Source: Chiloscyllium plagiosum
Lineage: Eukaryota
Length of the DNA stretch: 64,000 nt
Assembly: GCF_004010195.1 (NCBI RefSeq)
Contig: NC_057735.1
Span: forward strand, 52,216,018 to 52,280,017
Direction of reading: 5' to 3'
Every line of letters begins with the position of its first letter. The stretch's first letter is position 1. Shown here piece after piece: positions 54,236-64,000 of the stretch. The notes under the pieces are model-generated. The model was not told the DNA's origin, did no database searches, and saw only the letters and a list, made by a program, of their open reading frames with translations. The translations under genes and the position numbers were made by a program.

Positions 54236-55143
54236 CTACTGAGTGAGTTTGTTTGATTTAATAATTTGAGTGAAGGGATATTTCAGCACATTCTTCAGCT
54301 GCTGTCTGAACTTAGTCTGGGTCATAACATAAATTGCAGTGTTTGTGCAGCAACTGAGGAGCTGCAGCATGAAACCCAGTTCCCGCACAAACCAATCAAG
54401 AGACACAGACTTATACCCAATCAAAAACATCCGGTACCATATAGAAAACACCATTAACATTGACCATAACAGGATGAAATTGGCCGAGATGACAAAAAGT
54501 AAAATGATGGATTTTTTTCAATTTTGCATTTCTGTGCAACACTGACCAGCCCCACTGGTGTGAGTCTGGAGTCTCCTGCGGGCTCTGCTCGTCACTAAAA
54601 TGTATTTGACAATGAAAACATTGAGCAGCAGAATCAGGAGAAATGGGAGAACTGGGTTTAGAATATGGTGGAGGAATTCAATTGTGACCCAGAATAGACA
54701 GAATTGAACATCCCTTGTTACATAACAAAACCATGGGTTGTTCTCCAGCCAATACCAACCCGAAAGCATAAAACACCAGAAAATGTTCTTTAAACAGCTC
54801 AGCACAGTCACTGTTCCCAGAACCACAGCAGCCGTTTTCTCACTGCAATATTTACTTTTCAGCTTCTGGCAACAAATGGCCACAAATCGATCAAAGGTGA
54901 AAGTGACGGTGAACCAGACAGAGCAGTCAGTGGCTGCATAAAGCAGGACTGCATGGACATTACACACGGGGATGGACTTCAGGAAATGAAACTGTTCATC
55001 ATAAACAATGGGAATGTGTCTCAATATCAGGTCGAGGATAATGACCAGCAGATCTGCCACTGTCATGGCCACCAGGTAACGTCTGGCACATGGAGATAAT
55101 CCACAATCTTTATAAAGCAGGATGAAGATCGTCACTACGTTAA
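54236..55143 (-). pseudogene. GPR139/GPR142-like class A GPCR main exon with one in-frame stop
   Basis: CCTCACAG acceptor, then VNVVTIFIL, ADLLVII, TFDRFVAICC, PWFC, NTAIY. TGA at 54518-54520 aligns with CGA in the paralogue. The upstream coding exon was not found. Confidence 0.88.
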
Positions 55144-55536
55144 CTGTGAGGAAGGCAAACAAACAATTTAGACATCAGTCTAGAGGCAAAGTTACCAGTT
55201 TGCTTGAGGAGTGAGTCAAATTGTCAAATGAGTCACTGTATTCAGAGGTTTATTGATGGAATTGAAGCTGAATTAATAAAAGTTTTGAATTACTTCCAAA
55301 GTGTGATGTTAATAAAACATCTCCCGCCCAAACACACAGACACACGTCCATAAAAATAGATGATTTGTGGAACAATTTTATGCACTTGATCATTCGATAG
55401 CAAACACTGGTCATATGGCTACAGTTCCTAACATGGAGGGTGAAAGTGCTGCGGTCCTCAAGGATTCCGTCTCAGTTCTTTTCAGACAAATGGAGGTTGG
55501 AAATTACCGTCTTTTAGTTTTAATTTTTATTGGTCT

Positions 55537-55845
55537 AGATTAGATTCCCTACAGTATGGAAACAGGCCTTTTGGCCCAACAAGTCTCACCAACCTCTGAA
55601 GAGTAACACACCAGACCCATTCCCCTACCCTATATTTACCGCTGACTAATGCACCTAACACTGTGGGAAATTTAGCATGGCCAATTCAACTGGCCTGCAC
55701 ATCTTTGGACTGTAGGAGGAAACCCATGCAGACAGAGAGAGAATGTGCAAACTCCACACAGACATACACCCGAAGCTGGAATCAAACCTGGGTCCCTGGC
55801 ACTTTGAGGCAGCAGTGCTAAACACTGAGCCATCATGCTGCCTGT
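55537..55845 (-). mobile_element. HE1-type V-SINE
   Basis: Reverse complement of the SINE consensus. Confidence 0.88.
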
Positions 55846-56559
55846 ACCCTCTACAGTGAAAAAGCACAAATGGAGGGATAATGTATTCACCCATTTAGCT
55901 GTCTGAGGGGATTTCCAAACAACGTCTCCTTCTCCCTGGAATGGGATCTCTTCCCTCGGAATCTTAGCTTTTGTTCAATTAATTGACGTTCAAATATAAT
56001 ATCAGATGTAAAATATACCAGAGAATGTCAGTTATGGAAAGTTCTGGATAATGTCCAGAAAATTCCCAGGTTCAGGAAAAGACCAGATTCTCCCAATATG
56101 TGACACATGAAAATGAACAGAGTCTCTTTTTCTCATAAATTCAGGTACATCATGAGGCTATTCAACCCTTCAAACCTTCTCCATCATTCATTGAGGCTGT
56201 GGCTGATCTGATGGCGTCCTGGGCTTCATGTTACAGGAACTTTTATTCATTTAATGCTCTGGGTTCCTGTCACTGACCAGTGGCCAATCAGACTCTTTTT
56301 ACACCGATTTTCTTCAAGCATGTGTTCAGGAACAAAGTCCACAATGACTGACTATCCAAACAATACATTCCATCAGATTTAAATTTTGATGTTATTTTAA
56401 GAGCACTTTACACATAACAATAAAAACAGATACTCTTTTAGTGGATATCATGATTCACTTACAGTTAGGAGATGTGGTGATTTGATTTGTCTCATCTTAA
56501 GTTATTTGATCAATGACAGCATTGAGACTCTTGATTCATTATAAAATACCACTACAAAA

Positions 56560-58550
56560 AGGCCTGTGTAGGAAATGTCAGGAATTAGGAACAAAAGTAA
56601 AGAGCAGAACCTCAAGTGTTAGACTCTCAGGATCGTTACCCAAGCCACTTGAAAATTGGTACAGAAAGAAGAAAAATCGGGGAGTAAATGTGTCACGAAA
56701 GGTTAGTGCAGGATTTCATGGGAAACAGACATCCGTATTAGGTCAGGCAGGAAGTGGACCAATGGGATGGGCTCCACCTGAACCCATCAGCAACCAGGAT
56801 CCGAGCTGAACAGTTAAACAGCGTGGTTACAGGACTGGAAATAGTTGAAGGACAGAGGGCTCAGGAGAGGTTTTTAAAATTTCCAGAACAAATAATAGGA
56901 GAGACAGTTTGCTGCTGGTCAGTAATCTAATTTCAGGCACAACAGATAAGGGACAACGATGATAAGTGAGATAATTAATGCAGCACTGAGGATGTTGGAC
57001 TTAAATGCTTGCAGTACATGAAACAAGGTAAAAGAGCTTGCAGCTCTGATTGAATCTGATGGGTACATGGATGTGGGCAATCCTGAGACAGGGCTGCAAG
57101 GGGATCAGGGTTGGGAAGTAAATATCCAAGGAATTACGTCCGATTGAAAAATCAGGCAGATGGGGAGAGCAAGAGGGGATACCTTGTTAGGAAGAAATGA
57201 AATTAAATCAATAACGAGAAGTGATATATGGTGAGAAGGTGTTGAATCCGAGTGCGTAGAGATCAGGAACAGCAAAGGAAAAATAAATTCTCCGTGGGAG
57301 CTGCATGCAGATCTCCTAACAGTTGTCAGGATGTGAGGCACAGAAGAAATTAGGAGACAGAAAAGGCATGTAAAAAAGTCACTGCTGCGACAATGGTGGG
57401 GGAATTCAATATGCAAGTGGTCTAGGAAAATCAGGTTGATAACAGATCCCAAGAAAAGGAATTTGTGGAATATATACGAGATTTCTTTTGGACAAGCTTT
57501 CCTTGGACCTCAAGGCAATTCTGGATTTGATGATGCAGACTGAGACAGACGTGATGGAGCTGAAGGAGCTTGTGTGGGCCGTGAGCACAATATGGTCAAT
57601 GACACCCTGCAATTTGAGAAGGAGAAGCTGGAAATCAGCACCGTTGACTAAACATAGCTTCAAAGACATGACGGAGGAGCTGGCCAGAGTTGATTGGAAG
57701 GAGAGGCTAACAGGGAAGTCAGTGGAGCAGCAACGACTCGAGTTTCTGGGGGTAATTTGGGAGGCACAGCATAAATTCATGCCAAGGAATAAGACACATA
57801 CTAATGGGAGAAAGAGGGAAGATAGGAAAATGGCAAACGTAACAACTGTTTAAGGCGGGGAGGGAGACAGAAATGGAAGATTATAGGCTGTTTGGGCTGA
57901 CCTCTGTCGATGATTAGATATTACCATTCATTAATAAGGATGAGATTGTGGAGTGGGTGGTAAAACAGGGCTAAGTCAACATGACTTCGTGTGAAGCAGA
58001 GGTTCCAGAAGATCTTTGATAAGGTACCGCACAAGAGGCTGCTAAATAGATTAAGTGCCCAAGGTGTTAAGGGCAAGATACTGACATAAACAGAGCATGT
58101 CTGATTGGCAGGAGGCTGAGATTAGGGGTAAACGGATCATTTTCAGGATGGCATCTGTTGACTGGCAGAGTTCCGGAGGGGACCAGAGTTAGGACACAAC
58201 TGTTCATGTTGCACATTAATGATCTGGATGCAGGAACTGAGGCCTTTGTTGCTAAGCTTACAGATGACACAAAGACTGGTGGAGGGACAGGTGAAGGCGA
58301 TGAGACAGCAGAAAGAAAAATCGCTGAAGGTGGCAGGAGGGTTTAGTGAGATAATTAAGAAAATATATGGGACACTTTATTTCTAAAGGCATTGATTGCA
58401 AGAGTGTAGATGTTATGTTGAGCAGTTCAGAACTATGGTTAGGCCAAAGCTGGAGGACTGTATACAGTTCTGGCCATCACTCTAGAGGAAGGATATAATT
58501 GCAATGGGATGGCTGCAGAGGAAGTTCACCAGGATGTTGCCTGGGATAAG
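56560..58550 (+). mobile_element. Old decayed CR1 LINE
   Basis: VPEGTRVRTQLFMLHINDL...LTDDTK remnants. Confidence 0.7.
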
Positions 58551-58767
58551 ACGACAAGACAATGGAGCCAAAGTAGGCCATTCAGCCAATCGCGTCTGCT
58601 CCGCCACTCATGGTTGATCTGATAACCCTCAAATTCCATTAACTTTCGTTTCTTCTTGATTCACTTACTGATTAAAAATCTGTCCATCTCAGCTTTGAAT
58701 GCACTTAATGACTCAGCCTCGACAGCCCCACTGTGGTTTAGAACTCAATAGAATCACGAAGAGTAAA

Positions 58768-61130
58768 TGTTGTGCTTGGAATGTGGTCAGCCAGGTAGAT
58801 ATCAGAGTATGAGTTCCTCCAACGAGGAGGTTAATCTGGGCCAAGCAGAAAACCCCAGCTGACAGCTATAAAGAGGAATATTTCAACAGGTCGAGACAGC
58901 GCGCCATGGAGGGGATCGTTATGGCCGACTGCCTGCTCCTCTTCCGTGGTTACGTTAGGGCCCGGGTATCCTTGGAGAAGGAGCACGCGGTGTCCACCAA
59001 CAACCTGGAGCTGTTCAGGGAGAGGTGGGCGCCGCAGGGAGTGGAGTGCATCATTTCTCCCTCCAACTCTATTTTGATTTAGTCCCTACCCTCCCCTTCA
59101 CTGTTTTGATCACACAGCACTGCCCTTTGATGTGAAGAGCAGTGTTTGTCACTGGCCACCCGGGTGTTTTCCTATCTTCCTGGTGGTGGAATTTGAATAA
59201 AGATTCGTGCACTTTGTGTCTTTCACTGTGTCTCACACCTGCACACACACACACCATGGGTGCTGGGGATAAAATAAGCACTACCGCACTTAGGTGGTAG
59301 TGTGGGGGTTAAATTATTTTAAAAAAAAGATAAAGAGGAATATTTCAACAGGTCGAGACAGCGGGCCGTGGAGGGGATCGTTATGGCCGACTGCCTGCTC
59401 CTCCTTCGTGGTTACGTTAGGGCCCGGGTGTCCTTGGAGAAGGAGCACGCGGTGTCCACCAACACCCTGGAGTTGTTCAGGGAGAGGTGGGCGCCGCAGG
59501 GAGTGGAGTGCATCATTTCTCCCTCCAACTCTATTTTGATTTAGTCCCTACCCTCCCCTTCACTGTTTTGATCACACAGCACTGCCCTTTGATGTGAAGA
59601 GCAGTGTTTGTCACTGGCCACCCGAGTGTTTTCCTATCTTCCTGGTGGTGGAATTTAAATAAAGATTCGTGCACTTTGTGTCTTTCACTGTGTCTCACAC
59701 CTGCACACACACACCAGGGGTGCTGGGGAAAAAAAAAGTACTACCGCACTTAGGTGGTAGTGTGGGGGTTAAATAAAAAAAAATAAACAAGAGATTCCCC
59801 GAAGAAAAAAAAAAGAACAAAAAAACAGAGGAATATTTCAACTGGTCGAGGCAGCGGGCCGTGGAGGGGGTTGTTAGGGCCGACTGCCTGCCCCTCTTCC
59901 GTGGTTACGTTCGGGCCCGGGTGTCCTTGGAGAAGGAGCACGCGGTGTCCACCAAAGCCCTGGAGTTGTTCAGGGACAGGTGCGCCCCGCGGGGAGTGGA
60001 GTGCATTATTTCCCCCTCCAACTCTATTTTGATTTAGTTCCTACCCTCCCCTTCATTGTTTTGATCACACAGCACTGCCCTTTGATGTGAAGGGCAGTGT
60101 TTGTCACTGGCCACCCGGGTGTTTTCCTATCTTCCTGGTGGTGAAAATCGAATAAAGATTCGTGCACTTTGTGTCTTTCACTGTGTCTCACACCTGCACA
60201 CATGCACCATGGGTGCTGGGGAAAAAATAAGCACTACCGCGGTTAGGCGTTAGTGTGGGTGTTAAAAAAAACCAGAGCTACACAGCATTGCCCTTTGATG
60301 TGAAGGGTACTGCTTGTCACTGGCCACTCGGGTGTTTCCTTTCTTCCTGGTGGTGGAAATTTGAATAAAGATTCGTGCACCTTGTGTAAGAAAATAAAAT
60401 AAAAGAAAAAACAAAGAGGAATATTTCAACAGGTCGAGGCAATGGGCCGTGGAGGGGATCGTTAGGGCCGATTGCCTGCCCCTCTTCCGCGGTTACGTTA
60501 GGGCCCGTGTTTCCTTGGAGAAGGAGGACGCAGTGTCCACCAACACCCTGGAGTTGTTCAGGGAGAGGTGGGCGCCGCAGGGAGTGGAGTGCATTATTTC
60601 CCCCTCCAACTCTATTTTGATTTAGTCCCTACCCTCCACTTCACTGTTTGATCACACAGCATTGCCCTTTGACGTGAAGAGCAGTGCTTGTAAATGGCCA
60701 CTCCGGTGTTTTCCTATCTTCCTGGTGGTGGAAATTGAATAAAGATTTGTTCACTTTTTGTCTTTCACTATGTCTCACACTTGTACACAAACAGCATGGG
60801 TGCTGGGGAAAAATAAGCTCTACTGCAGTTGGGCGGTAGTGTGGGGGTTAAATAAAAAAAAATAAACAGAATATCAGAGGTTCTGTTCACTCTGAGAACT
60901 GTCTCTGAGGTATCTGGATCAGTGTGTGTGCGCGTGCATAAAGGCCTCTTGGGTGTTTCCTTTCTTCGTGGTAAAAAAAAGGAAAAAAAAAAGAGGAATA
61001 TTCACGATTCTGCTTATTTTCTTCAGAAGCAAATTCTGAGGAAGCAGGATCATTGTCAAGGACTTTCCATTTGTAAATAAAGGGTGGTTTGGTGACAGAA
61101 AACCAGTCTCTGTGGAGGTATTTCTGTAAA
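58768..61130 (+). mobile_element. LTR-like host repeat split by the Tx1-like array
   Basis: TG start near 58768, TATAAA at 58868, sequence resumes near 60868, AATAAA near 61076. Confidence 0.5.
58873..60867 (+). mobile_element. Head-to-tail array of four 5'-truncated Tx1-like (L1 clade) retrotransposon 3' ends
   Basis: Units start at 58873, 59335, 59828 and 60416. Each encodes NRSRQRAVEG...FRGYVRARVSLEKEHAVST...RERWAPQGVECIISPSNSILI*, then a 3' UTR, AATAAA and an A-rich tail. Confidence 0.8.
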
Positions 61131-61966
61131 GTTATCATAGTCCTGCTTGACTGTAGGGCTGTTCTCTCATTGGAGAGAGATGCCTGGTGGTGGTATAAAG
61201 TGAGGATCACCAACCCTCAGGCAGGGGGAGAGGTAGAGGCTTTCATGGCAATCTCAAACTGTACGAGAAATGACACCATGTTGTTGGCATCCCTGTGCAT
61301 TACAAACCATCGGACTAGTGAAGTGAGCTAACCAAACCTCTAAACAGGTTCTCTACCCTCTGAGATGGAATTTAAAAAAAAACCCTTGTTCTTTGTCTTA
61401 AATGTATGACTCCTTATTCTCAGATTCTGCCGTCTGGTCTCAGACTCTCCCAAAAGGAGAAAGAACCTCTCCATGTTTATGCTGTCAAGTCCCCTAAATA
61501 TCTTGAATGTTTCAATAAGGCAAGTCGTTTTCCAGGCATCATTTATGATAGCCACCTTGTCAGTCTCTGTTTCCCAAGGGACACTTCTTCTTATCTCTCG
61601 AACGGGACAATTTATCAATATCTTCTTGGAAGCAAAAGTCCAAAGTCTAGGACAGGGCAGCAATGCTGGCTCATGTACAGTTCACAGGATGAAAGAAATT
61701 TACTGACAAAGTCCTGAAGTCAAACAATGATGTCAGATGAAGTCAAACAATGATGTGGCCGTCTGTTCTCGATCCTTCCATTGATTGTGAACTTATTCTC
61801 TCTGTCTACTTTGTTCAGGCCCCCTCATGATTTTGAGCACCTCCATCAAACCTCCTCTTAACTTTCACATCTCCAAGCAAAACAGGCAGAACTTCTGCAA
61901 TCTACCAGCCTCACTAAAATTAGACAGATTCACAGCCGACTGTATTTGGGAAATGAAAGAAGAGGA

Positions 61967-62421
61967 GAAAGTGAGGTCTGCAGATGCTGGAGATCAAAGT
62001 TGAAACTTTATTGCTGGAACAGCACAGCAGGTCAGGCAGCATCCAGGGAACAGGAGATTCGACGTTTCGGGCACAGGCCCTTCTTCAGGAACATCACTGG
62101 TCATCAAGCTGCAGGCTGAATACTTTCTATCTACTACCATCCTCTGCCTTCTATGGGCCAGCCAATTCTGAATCCAGACAGACAGGTTTCTCTGTATCCC
62201 ATGCCTTCTATCACCCTCACCTTGACCTCTTTCCACCTATCACATTTCCAACGCCCCTCCTCCAAGTGTAGGGTAGCCAGGAAGGACCTGAAGAGAGAGC
62301 TAAAAGCAGCAAGGAGGGGACATGAAAGGTCCTTAGTCGATAGGATTAGGGAAAACCCTAAGGAATCTCCTGTTCCCTGGATGCTGCCTGACCTGCTGTG
62401 CTGTTCCAGCAATAAAGTTTC
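61967..62421. mobile_element. Composite insertion: inverted Penelope terminal repeats enclosing two CR1 fragments
   Basis: 16-bp TSD AAATGAAAGAAGAGGA at 61951 and 62422. Confidence 0.8.
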
Positions 62422-62773
62422 AAATGAAAGAAGAGGACAATCGTTCGATTTCTATCCCATGTGTAACAGCACAGCAGGCTGTTCACTTGCTTCCAATGGC
62501 CAGATCAAACTGGGAGCACTGTGCACATGATGAATCATAGTCATTAATAAGAGCAATGGGGAAAACAAAGGAAGTTCTATACGCATATAACAGCCAGAAA
62601 ATTGATCTCGCTACTGCATGAAGAAGAGGAGGCAGATTTCACAGGTACATATGAATACAATGGGCCAAATAGCCTTTTTCTATACTGTAATGACTCGATA
62701 AATTTAAAAGGGACGCTCTACCAGTGTCTGAATAATAAAATAATAGGAAATGCCGAGTTTTAAATGAATACTG

Positions 62774-62897
62774 TGAATACAGGGGTGATGGGTGAATGGG
62801 GCAGTGTAGATCAGTGAATACAGGGGTGATGGGTGAATAAGACAGTGTAGGTCAGTGATTTCAGTGATAATAGTGAATGGGACAGTGTAAGTCAGAC
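62774..62897. repeat. ~41-bp minisatellite, 3 copies
   Basis: GTGAATACAGGGGTGATGGGTGAATGGGGCAGTGTAGATCA. Confidence 0.8.
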
Positions 62898-63691
62898 TGA
62901 CTGTATGTAATTTTTGAATGACTGATCGGTCAGGGATGTTGGTGCATAGAGAGAGAACTGCAGCTGAGAACTGCAGCTATGAGCTACAATTTTATTTACT
63001 ACTCGAGTAGTGTCAAAGGGGTGAATGTCCTTGTGTTTCTCGGTTCTACGTTGTAATGTTCCATTTAGCCCTTTGAAAATGTTGCACAGGAGAAGCTAGA
63101 GGCCTTTTTGATGGTTAGGTGTAAGTTGTAAAATGTACTTGGATAATCCAGTCTAGCTCAAGAATAGCTCCCTCATCCCCATTCCCAGCTTCCCATCTTT
63201 GTAACATTTGCTCCAGATATTAGTCAAGCTGCAGACCCAGATTCACTCTCAAAACAGGCCTCACCTAGGGTTGGCTCAGTCAAATCCTCTGGTCTCGTTA
63301 AATGCAACATTGTACTCACGGCCTCCAGGAAATTAAAAGTAACTTTCCCAAAGCAGAACATAAGTGTGAAGGTAATGTGGTGTTGCAAGGTGTAATTTTG
63401 AAGAGACATTTTAAGTCGAAGGTATCTTGTAGTTTGCCAGAGACACTAAATTAACCAGCTTGTAAGACCTTGGCTTTTTAAAAGTTGGAACAACAGAAAC
63501 AGCCTGAATGGGTGGCATCGAGCTCTCACAGAACCAGGAATTTTAGTTTTAAATAGGAGTTGCTGTTGAAGTCGTGAAGAAGTTAAAGCTATTCGTTCCT
63601 TCTCTATTTTACAGCCAAAAGCTGGGGTTCTGTTTTCTTACAGGAGTTGTATGTGAGACAATGTTTTTTTCTGAATTTGCCTTTTGCTAAG

Positions 63692-64000
63692 TGTTATGGA
63701 CTAGGCCAGACCACTTAAAACATTCTGAAGCAGGCAGCCTAGACCATAATTTTGCAACTTGATTTGTTAAGTGTACAGTAAAAAATCCCAGATTACGTTG
63801 GCAAGGTTGACTACCAGGTTTAAAACAGACATAAAATGTATTCACAAAATTACACAATGAAATATGAAGAACAGAATAAAGAACCACTACAAAACCCAGT
63901 CTATCCAAACTGGATTTAAATCTGCTGTTCTGAACATATACAACAGTCCCAGTAAACAAACCCCCTTTGAAACACAGTACAAAAAAGGGTCAGATGCTTA
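63692..64000. mobile_element. LTR-like repeat, same family as 46008-46602, runs off the window
   Basis: TGTTATGGACTAGGCCAGACC...AAAACATT head. Confidence 0.55.

Follow-up and report, generated by a model that had tools for sequence, protein, structure and literature searches.

Why should four truncated copies of one retrotransposon, lying side by side, begin at the same base? The question is raised by a window of 64,000 nucleotides from Chiloscyllium plagiosum (the whole stretch analysed, on contig C26 of a 3.56-Gb genome). At positions 58870-61002 of this window, four 5′-truncated 3′ ends of a Tx1-clade long interspersed element (LINE), U1 to U4, are stacked with spacings of 462, 493 and 588 inside a host long terminal repeat (LTR). 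Each unit consists of the last 65 codons of the second open reading frame (ORF2), a 3′ untranslated region (UTR) and its own A-rich tail. As the first-pass annotation of this DNA had reported, all four start with GAGGAATATT-TCAAC and their A-rich tails differ. It had proposed that a short chimeric unit, made of the target motif and the Tx1 3′ end, regenerates its own target and is retroposed again and again into the same site. Repeated retroposition, rather than plain tandem duplication, was supported by our analyses, but the mobile chimeric unit was not. On the sequence comparisons below, the shared start probably reflects new insertions at the regenerated upstream target that were completed on the resident copy, inheriting its junction and approximately 60-80 nt, while the body came from another donor RNA.

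All parts of the array read on the + strand. The 5′ half of the host repeat, a diverged solo LTR-like sequence of about 250 bp, lies at 58768-58869 (start approximate) and matches four natural copies in their 5′ halves at 64-75% identity. As annotated, the repeat is broken at TATAAA (58867-58872) and resumes after 61002; its 3′ half (61003-61124, AATAAA at 61076-61081) is identical to each of four natural copies at 78/90 positions. The 13-bp target AAAGAGGAATATT at 58870-58882 recurs before U2, U3 (with one change) and U4 and past the array end (60990-61002), which agrees with the idea that the target is regenerated as a 13-bp duplication. We assigned AAAGAGGAATATT to the target and TCAAC to the element because longer copies elsewhere read GGCCA directly before TCAAC. 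The shared start of the earlier description was therefore retained, but its breakpoint was moved two bases upstream, between GAGGAATATT and TCAAC.

U1 with its A-rich tail occupies 58883-59331 (stop codon at 59080-59082). The block of U2 (59332-59824) comprises a target copy, the unit itself (59345-59770) and a tail, within which a short scrap with a foreign head lies near 59783-59801. It is followed by a target copy with U3 (59838-60263) and a short tail, together 59825-60269, and then by a passenger piece, F1 (60270-60412), which has a foreign head AACCAGAGCT, 3′ UTR sequence (60280-60387) and its own tail. The block of U4 (60413-60862) again contains a target copy, the unit (60426-60849) and a tail. 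Behind it, a second passenger (60863-60989) is composed of the target and the 3′ half of another LTR copy (approximately 60863-60942; LTR part 81-84% identical to natural copies), a 3′ UTR scrap, F2 (60943-60972), and a tail. The two shorter 3′ UTR pieces that had been noticed are thus present, but their heads are foreign, and the GAGGAATA behind each belongs to the target copy of the next block. The 65-codon remnant is indeed open in all four units, but this is not noteworthy, since 35 of 55 copies at other loci are open too; the open frame was rejected as a sign of selection on the same grounds.

We then considered the family elsewhere in the genome, using a 29-nt marker with 2481 exact matches, which is biased to younger copies that cover the marker stretch. 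Seventy-two loci were chosen by position from 100 listed marker matches (on contig C1 and at the beginning of C2), and a further 8 were picked for showing arrays. These 80 loci and the window were parsed against one natural copy, yielding 340 pieces. BLAST pieces overlapping a better piece by at least 12 nt were dropped, as were columns with fewer than 20 other loci and pairs overlapping by less than 30 nt. A '-763' junction found across loci was left out of the evidence, being a break that the reference copy itself produces.

The position-chosen loci include 55 arrays of several pieces, and 26 of these repeat a junction. The first junction is seen again in 17 of 50 arrays, compared with a mean of 3.8 and a maximum of 10 in 2000 draws under a position-only null. 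Measured from the 3′ end, these locus-specific junctions lie anywhere between -36 and -969, and in the arrays that were read by eye the repeated head agrees with the target at that locus. Identical truncation is thus widespread among loci, with a junction particular to each. Pieces with the same junction end more than 20 nt apart in 74 of 177 pairs, often at internal positions and with fresh tails, indicating separate reverse-transcription events. Three loci (L147, L080 and L134) repeat a short first piece in its entirety, together with its tail and the junction that follows, so copied tracts can exceed 200 nt. The clearest case of an inherited junction is L150 (C25:49905500-49915400): its junction at -418/-415 is kept through units that are 72% to 87% identical to the reference, and 8-9 rare alleles in the first 83 nt persist through five units.

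The extent of copying was assessed with rare alleles, defined as those carried by no more than 5% of the other loci. Across 91 adjacent pairs with a common junction, from 33 loci, rare alleles of the 3′ unit were also present in the 5′ unit in 53/96 cases at 0-50 nt from the junction, 12/64 at 50-100 nt, 4/42 at 100-150 nt, 4/88 at 150-250 nt and 2/92 at 250-500 nt; the cross-locus control at 0-50 nt was 7/341. The position-chosen loci had shared rare alleles at 30 of 6053 sites within 100 nt and at 9 of 7276 beyond (p 7.5e-5). Beyond 100 nt, the local partner was the nearest copy in 4 of 44 pairs, with a mean rank quantile of 0.41. We fitted switch-point models, leaving out pairs that overlap by less than 200 nt or have a junction before -560. 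For 42 pairs, the log likelihood was -88 with an exponential tract (mean 60-80 nt), -97 with a uniform switch point, -143 with copying of the whole unit and -228 with none; the corresponding values for 28 position-chosen pairs were -51.5, -56.2, -83.0 and -92.8.

Transfer of alleles runs from the 3′ member of a pair to its 5′ neighbour. In unit triplets, allele pattern AB was found 15 times, BC once and AC once. Private changes are more numerous in the 3′ unit in 28 pairs and in the 5′ unit in 12, and 15 pairs are tied. Alleles found in the 5′ unit alone stay at 0.011-0.012 per site over its whole length, which matches a single copying at birth.

In the window, four alleles within the first 55 nt (58883-58937 in U1) are common to U1 and U2, and we infer that this tract was copied from the resident. 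Three of the four are rare (0/32, 1/35 and 0/40 other loci), and the fourth is found in 4/32. Over the remaining 365 nt, the two units have one fairly rare allele in common (5/75 loci), and in all they differ at 13 of 420 sites. Pairwise divergence between units is 3-11%, the most divergent pair being U3 and U4 (48/419 sites). Private changes are fewest in U1 and U2 (4-6) and number 9 in U3 and 15 in U4, which has the alternative state at approximately ten subfamily columns, including some in the 3′ UTR. U4 is presumably the oldest unit, and the earlier suggestion that the units carry alleles of different subfamilies holds. Of the two diagnostic groups that had been drawn, 1+2 was retained for its rare alleles, but 3+4 was not, its changes being majority or common alleles of the family; a 3+4 clade was rejected for that reason. 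AGG is common and the AGA form is present in 0/32 other loci, while ATT/ATC is polymorphic in 40/71 loci and TCT/TCC in 30/76. A tree of the units gave a divided answer to the suggestion that they might be monophyletic: the approximately unbiased (AU) test did not reject one clade (p 0.33), yet U1-U4 came together in 0% of 200 bootstrap trees in the poorly resolved analysis of 309 distal columns.

How could such units be formed? In the mechanism that we favour, the ORF2 protein would first nick the regenerated 13-bp target, beside the intact promoter half of the LTR. Complementary DNA (cDNA) would then be primed on the A-tail of a donor RNA, including read-through passengers if there are any. 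As a homologous copy begins directly behind the nick, the 5′ join would be made by pairing and not by end joining. The upstream top strand might run, or be extended, into the resident for tens of bases before annealing to the new cDNA; alternatively, the cDNA might switch to the DNA of the resident, or to its nascent RNA. These three variants would leave indistinguishable sequences. The target would be duplicated again, and the stack would grow in the 5′ direction, retaining the first junction while subfamilies turn over.

Several observations weigh against completion on the resident. The AU test fails to reject a single clade not only for U1-U4 but likewise at L150, L152 and L138. Within the window, informative shared alleles are limited to U1 and U2; U4 carries one of their alleles and U3 carries none, so the tract of U2 was not copied from the present-day U3. 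The distal parts of U1 and U2 have diverged little (distance 0.025, with 5 of 94 other copies closer), and -166A is common to U1, U2 and U4. In the larger sample, pairs inside one array are not independent, and L150 alone accounts for 31 of the shared alleles close to the junction and for 9 of the 15 triplets with pattern AB. A sign test by locus gave 10/13 (p 0.09), 12 of 25 loci have no shared rare allele, and four distal pairs are mutually nearest copies. Finally, the lead over a uniform crossover is just 4-5 log units in the position-chosen loci.

That small difference also speaks for post-insertion recombination, which we regard as unlikely, although it is the strongest of the alternatives. 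According to this scenario, a longer upstream insert would have arrived with its own junction, and its 5′ part would have been replaced later, by unequal crossover with an allele that has the resident only, or by nick-induced gene conversion. The same layout of resident head, foreign body and passengers would result, and new local junctions do exist, as the first junction is non-recurrent in 33 of 50 arrays. However, switch points are crowded near the junction, and only 13 bp of homology is available to conversion upstream of it. Moreover, ongoing conversion would not give an undiminished rate of 5′-private alleles near the junction, nor the one-way passage of alleles.

The mobile unit of the first-pass annotation, in which the target and the Tx1 3′ end would be transcribed together at the locus and retroposed whole as a non-autonomous element, at the same site and elsewhere, appears quite improbable. 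Genome-wide, the window junction was found, exactly or with one mismatch, in 4 copies here and 2 copies at one locus on contig C25, with no others; 14 of 15 matches with two mismatches were fetched, and none of them continues into the element. The many dispersed loci that would have supported the proposal were thus not found: there is one other locus compared with 2481 marker matches, and the bodies do not appear to be descended from one another beyond the first ~55 nt. As the junction is confined to the window and the C25 locus, the test for a dispersed short element fails. The C25 copies are 55-nt passenger pieces behind the tails of other bodies, inside a locally doubled block whose flank is 99% alike.

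A family like short interspersed elements (SINEs) or short internally deleted elements (SIDEs) would have many dispersed loci with the same 5′ end, which is not the case here. Descent from a single master over the whole length, as in such families, is disfavoured by the allele sharing and the likelihoods, the whole-unit model being 31-55 log units worse, although the AU test does not reject one clade and U1 differs from U2 at so few sites. The 3′ UTR alleles that U4 has from another subfamily are also at odds with it. Transcription is expected to start 25-30 nt behind a TATAAA box, and a transcript starting there would leave out the head. Nevertheless, pieces that bear a junction do travel, since the window junction is present on one other contig and that of F1 on three.

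The passenger block on C25 can be followed in part: a stretch of 570 nt has its source at a locus on C11 and is present as a retrocopy on C21. No locus besides C25 was found to hold all parts of the block. A 2-nt deletion that marks the C25 bodies is present at three further loci, where the pieces listed lack this passenger; one of these loci has an N gap. The source (L167:1502-2088, on C11) is a unique sequence of ~570 nt that ends just past AATAAA and resembles the 3′ end of a cellular mRNA. At L166:1500-2098 (C21), a poly(A)-tailed retrocopy of it lies in the LTR target, ahead of an array of -112 units, and at L001:2020-2585 (C25) the ~570-nt piece with the C21 head is carried as a passenger.

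F1 behaves in a similar manner. Its head and junction (60270-60387 in the window) occur on four contigs (the window, L194, L195 and L197), always behind A-tails, which are unrelated to one another, and with different 3′ ends, and the two comparable bodies upstream of F1 copies do not match U3. A source locus of F1 with the LTR 5′ half in front was not found at up to one mismatch, and the TG-rich part of the passenger behind U4 is unique at the same stringency. The passengers may come from 3′ read-through of donors resident in arrays, or from separate RNAs joined by template jumps, and either route would account for the window junction having reached C25. As a small dispersed unit, pieces of the F1 type are more plausible than U1-U4. 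Many short pieces that stop near -135/-130 and are followed by LTR-like or TG-rich sequence were also seen at L107, L109, L123, L126, L127, L129, L141, L147, L151, L155, L194 and L197; they may belong to a short family of their own or stem from an internally deleted donor.

Plain tandem duplication of DNA, by slippage or by unequal exchange between target copies or A-tails, is very improbable as the origin of the array. It does occur at times, as shown by the doubled C25 block and by the few distal pairs (4/44) that are nearest neighbours. Yet the units here are 13 to 48 sites apart in 420, with unrelated tails and passengers, and same-junction pieces often end at internal positions that are not A-rich and have fresh tails. 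The dependence of allele sharing on distance refutes duplication as a general cause.

Independent insertions might also stop at the same base through microhomology between the target overhang and the cDNA, which we rate as slightly less probable still. A few truncation points do recur across loci (-247 in 14 pairs, -182 in 7), some of them near a target-like GGAGTG word in the element. However, microhomology would leave the rare alleles shared behind the junction unexplained and is refuted where private alleles trail the junction in several units, as at L150, L101, L117 and L149. In the window it amounts to 1-3 nt at most, and the junction is one T longer than a microhomology join would give.

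A collapsed or mis-joined assembly is hardly credible: no short-read contig among those listed spans the whole array, and the U1/U2 joint is not among the rows shown, but the joints LTR/U1, U2/U3, F1/U4 and F2/flank are bridged at flank-like depth and with 0-2 differences by contigs from two studies of organism A, so those joints are not artefacts, and the units are 3-11% apart.

The same flanks were seen in a relative (organism B, runs X9 and X13), where both LTR flanks (58656-58882 and 61002-61400) are present at ~94-95% identity. The upstream contig of X13 stops fitting where the target motif ends, with 26 letters left, a weak hint that the U1 junction is absent or different in organism B.

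The assignment of the element to the Tx1 clade was supported by protein similarity. Against Xenopus Tx1 ORF2, the endonuclease-linker part shows 45% identity across 82% of the query (E 5e-101), and the C-terminal 241 residues are likewise 45% identical; the remnant in the window aligns to residues 1233-1292 of that protein. The match to human L1 ORF2p is weaker (E 2e-25), the two E values coming from different databases. In Pfam, longer copies of the family matched RVT_1 (E 8e-35) and, below the cut-off, Exo_endo_phos (E 8e-5) and zf-RVT (E 0.002). No Pfam match was obtained for the 69-residue remnant in the window, or for a 374-residue open stretch upstream of ORF2 in longer copies, which are frameshifted. 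A search with the C-terminal part, limited to longer proteins, returned one weak match, and the ESM Atlas returned generic reverse transcriptase (RT) clusters only. An Rfam scan of 55000-64000 gave a single chance match (E 0.36) and no family above chance. Two near-full-length, frameshifted copies with ORF1 and ORF2 were noted at L159 (C1:54124500-54131000) and L161, the ORF2 of the latter being internally duplicated.

The host repeat is an LTR-like sequence of ~250 bp with TG...CA ends, TATAAA and AATAAA, followed in some copies by a word like a primer site and by internal pol sequence. An open stretch behind the LTR copy in L045 matched RVT_1 (E 7e-7), and a first look gave 1561 candidates for the LTR 3′ half. 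The proposed preference for this target was upheld: an LTR half lies next to the array at 38 of the 72 position-chosen loci, or 35 of 62 when loci with N at the edge are set aside. LTR flanks thus exceed the share (>20% of flanks of one type) by which Kojima recognises a target-specific Tx1 family. The preference is not strict, as 27 of the 62 loci, for example L113, L120, L139 and L141, have no LTR match; junctions are repeated at L113, L120 and L139, indicating that stacking does not depend on the LTR. The hallmarks of target-primed reverse transcription, namely the 13-bp duplication, the A-rich tails and the 5′ truncation, are present, and target-site duplications (TSDs) of 13-16 bp were found at 8 of 14 single-piece loci.

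The joining of the 5′ end and the priming of the second strand are the least settled step of non-LTR retrotransposition. Chimeric L1 insertions, in which the cDNA recombines with a nearby endogenous L1, were reportedly found by Gilbert et al. in 2002 and 2005, as occasional events in cultured cells. There, too, the cDNA pairs with a resident copy, but here such pairing would be routine, fixing the junction through many rounds.

Tx1L of Xenopus laevis (YTX2, 'Transposon TX1 uncharacterized 149 kDa protein') also inserts into another transposon, but its target is a piggyBac-type DNA transposon instead of an LTR (Kojima 2015, PMC4494074), and inherited junctions are not mentioned for it in the material consulted. 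The crocodilian families Tx1-8_Crp and Tx1-4_AMi prefer LTR retrotransposons, and tandem SINEU-3 copies split by a TSD were interpreted as sequential insertions (Kojima 2015, PMC4494074). The SINEU-3 copies share a start from the full-length SINE, whereas the start here is a locus-specific truncation in ORF2. In the R1 arrays of Drosophila ribosomal DNA (rDNA), newcomers enter the TSD at the 5′ end of the resident, and arrays grow 5′-ward, as is proposed here (Stage and Eickbush 2009, PMC2718515). The 5′ junctions of R1 are variable except where the RNA includes target sequence from upstream (PMC2718515); copying of the truncation of a resident is not described for R1 in the material consulted.

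At the 'anneal' 5′ junctions of R2, the 3′ end of the cDNA is homologous to target DNA, giving a seamless and repeatable junction (PMC11371274). The homology of R2 is built into the RNA and lies in the upstream rDNA, whereas in the present arrays an older copy on the downstream side of the nick would supply it. Site-specific non-autonomous units of the kind that the first-pass annotation had proposed are represented by the R2 and R2/R1 SIDEs, which are interspersed in R1 arrays (Eickbush and Eickbush 2012, PMC3414825). They form multi-locus families with a ribozyme-made 5′ end, in contrast to the window unit, with its one locus, one passenger site and bodies of apparently mixed lineage. Double-insertion dimers of jockey and other non-LTR elements are tail-to-internal tandems split by a TSD (McGurk and Barbash 2018, PMC5932611). 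Distinct truncations in 6 of 10 jockey dimers served as proof of double insertion (PMC5932611), whereas the arrays here suggest that identical truncations, too, may arise by double insertion. An L1 preprint describes template switching and locally templated insertions, without the pattern of the window in the parts consulted (PMC11702581).

LTR targeting and stacking are thus known for Tx1 and R1, and the new part would be the inherited junction with a short copied tract that runs one way. Our literature search found no paper on identical or inherited truncation junctions, or on a short polarised copied tract, in independently inserted tandem copies (most subscription journals lay outside its coverage). 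We lean, if only slightly, toward the broader view that this Tx1 family, when it re-inserts at a target already occupied, routinely completes the insertion by homologous pairing with the copy in place. The first truncation would then be remembered at each locus through many rounds and through subfamily turnover, leaving hundreds of natural records of the length (~60-80 nt, sometimes >200) and polarity of second-strand priming. If so, the arrays are a measurable genome-wide record of homology-guided 5′ joining, with tract length and direction. Identical 5′ truncations in tandem copies are usually read as a duplication or a short mobile family, and here they appear to have been inserted separately. 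The reading also predicts that, where RNA-templated gene insertion is aimed at repeated targets, a second insertion would recombine with the first.

Two other features of the window were noted. Just upstream of the LTR, 56960-58550 is a decayed LINE-like RT region, which by eye we take to be CR1/L2-like. Downstream of the array there is a perfect 61-nt inverted repeat, with arms at 62000-62060 and 62363-62423 and 302 nt between them, which resembles pieces of an abundant SINE in opposite orientation.

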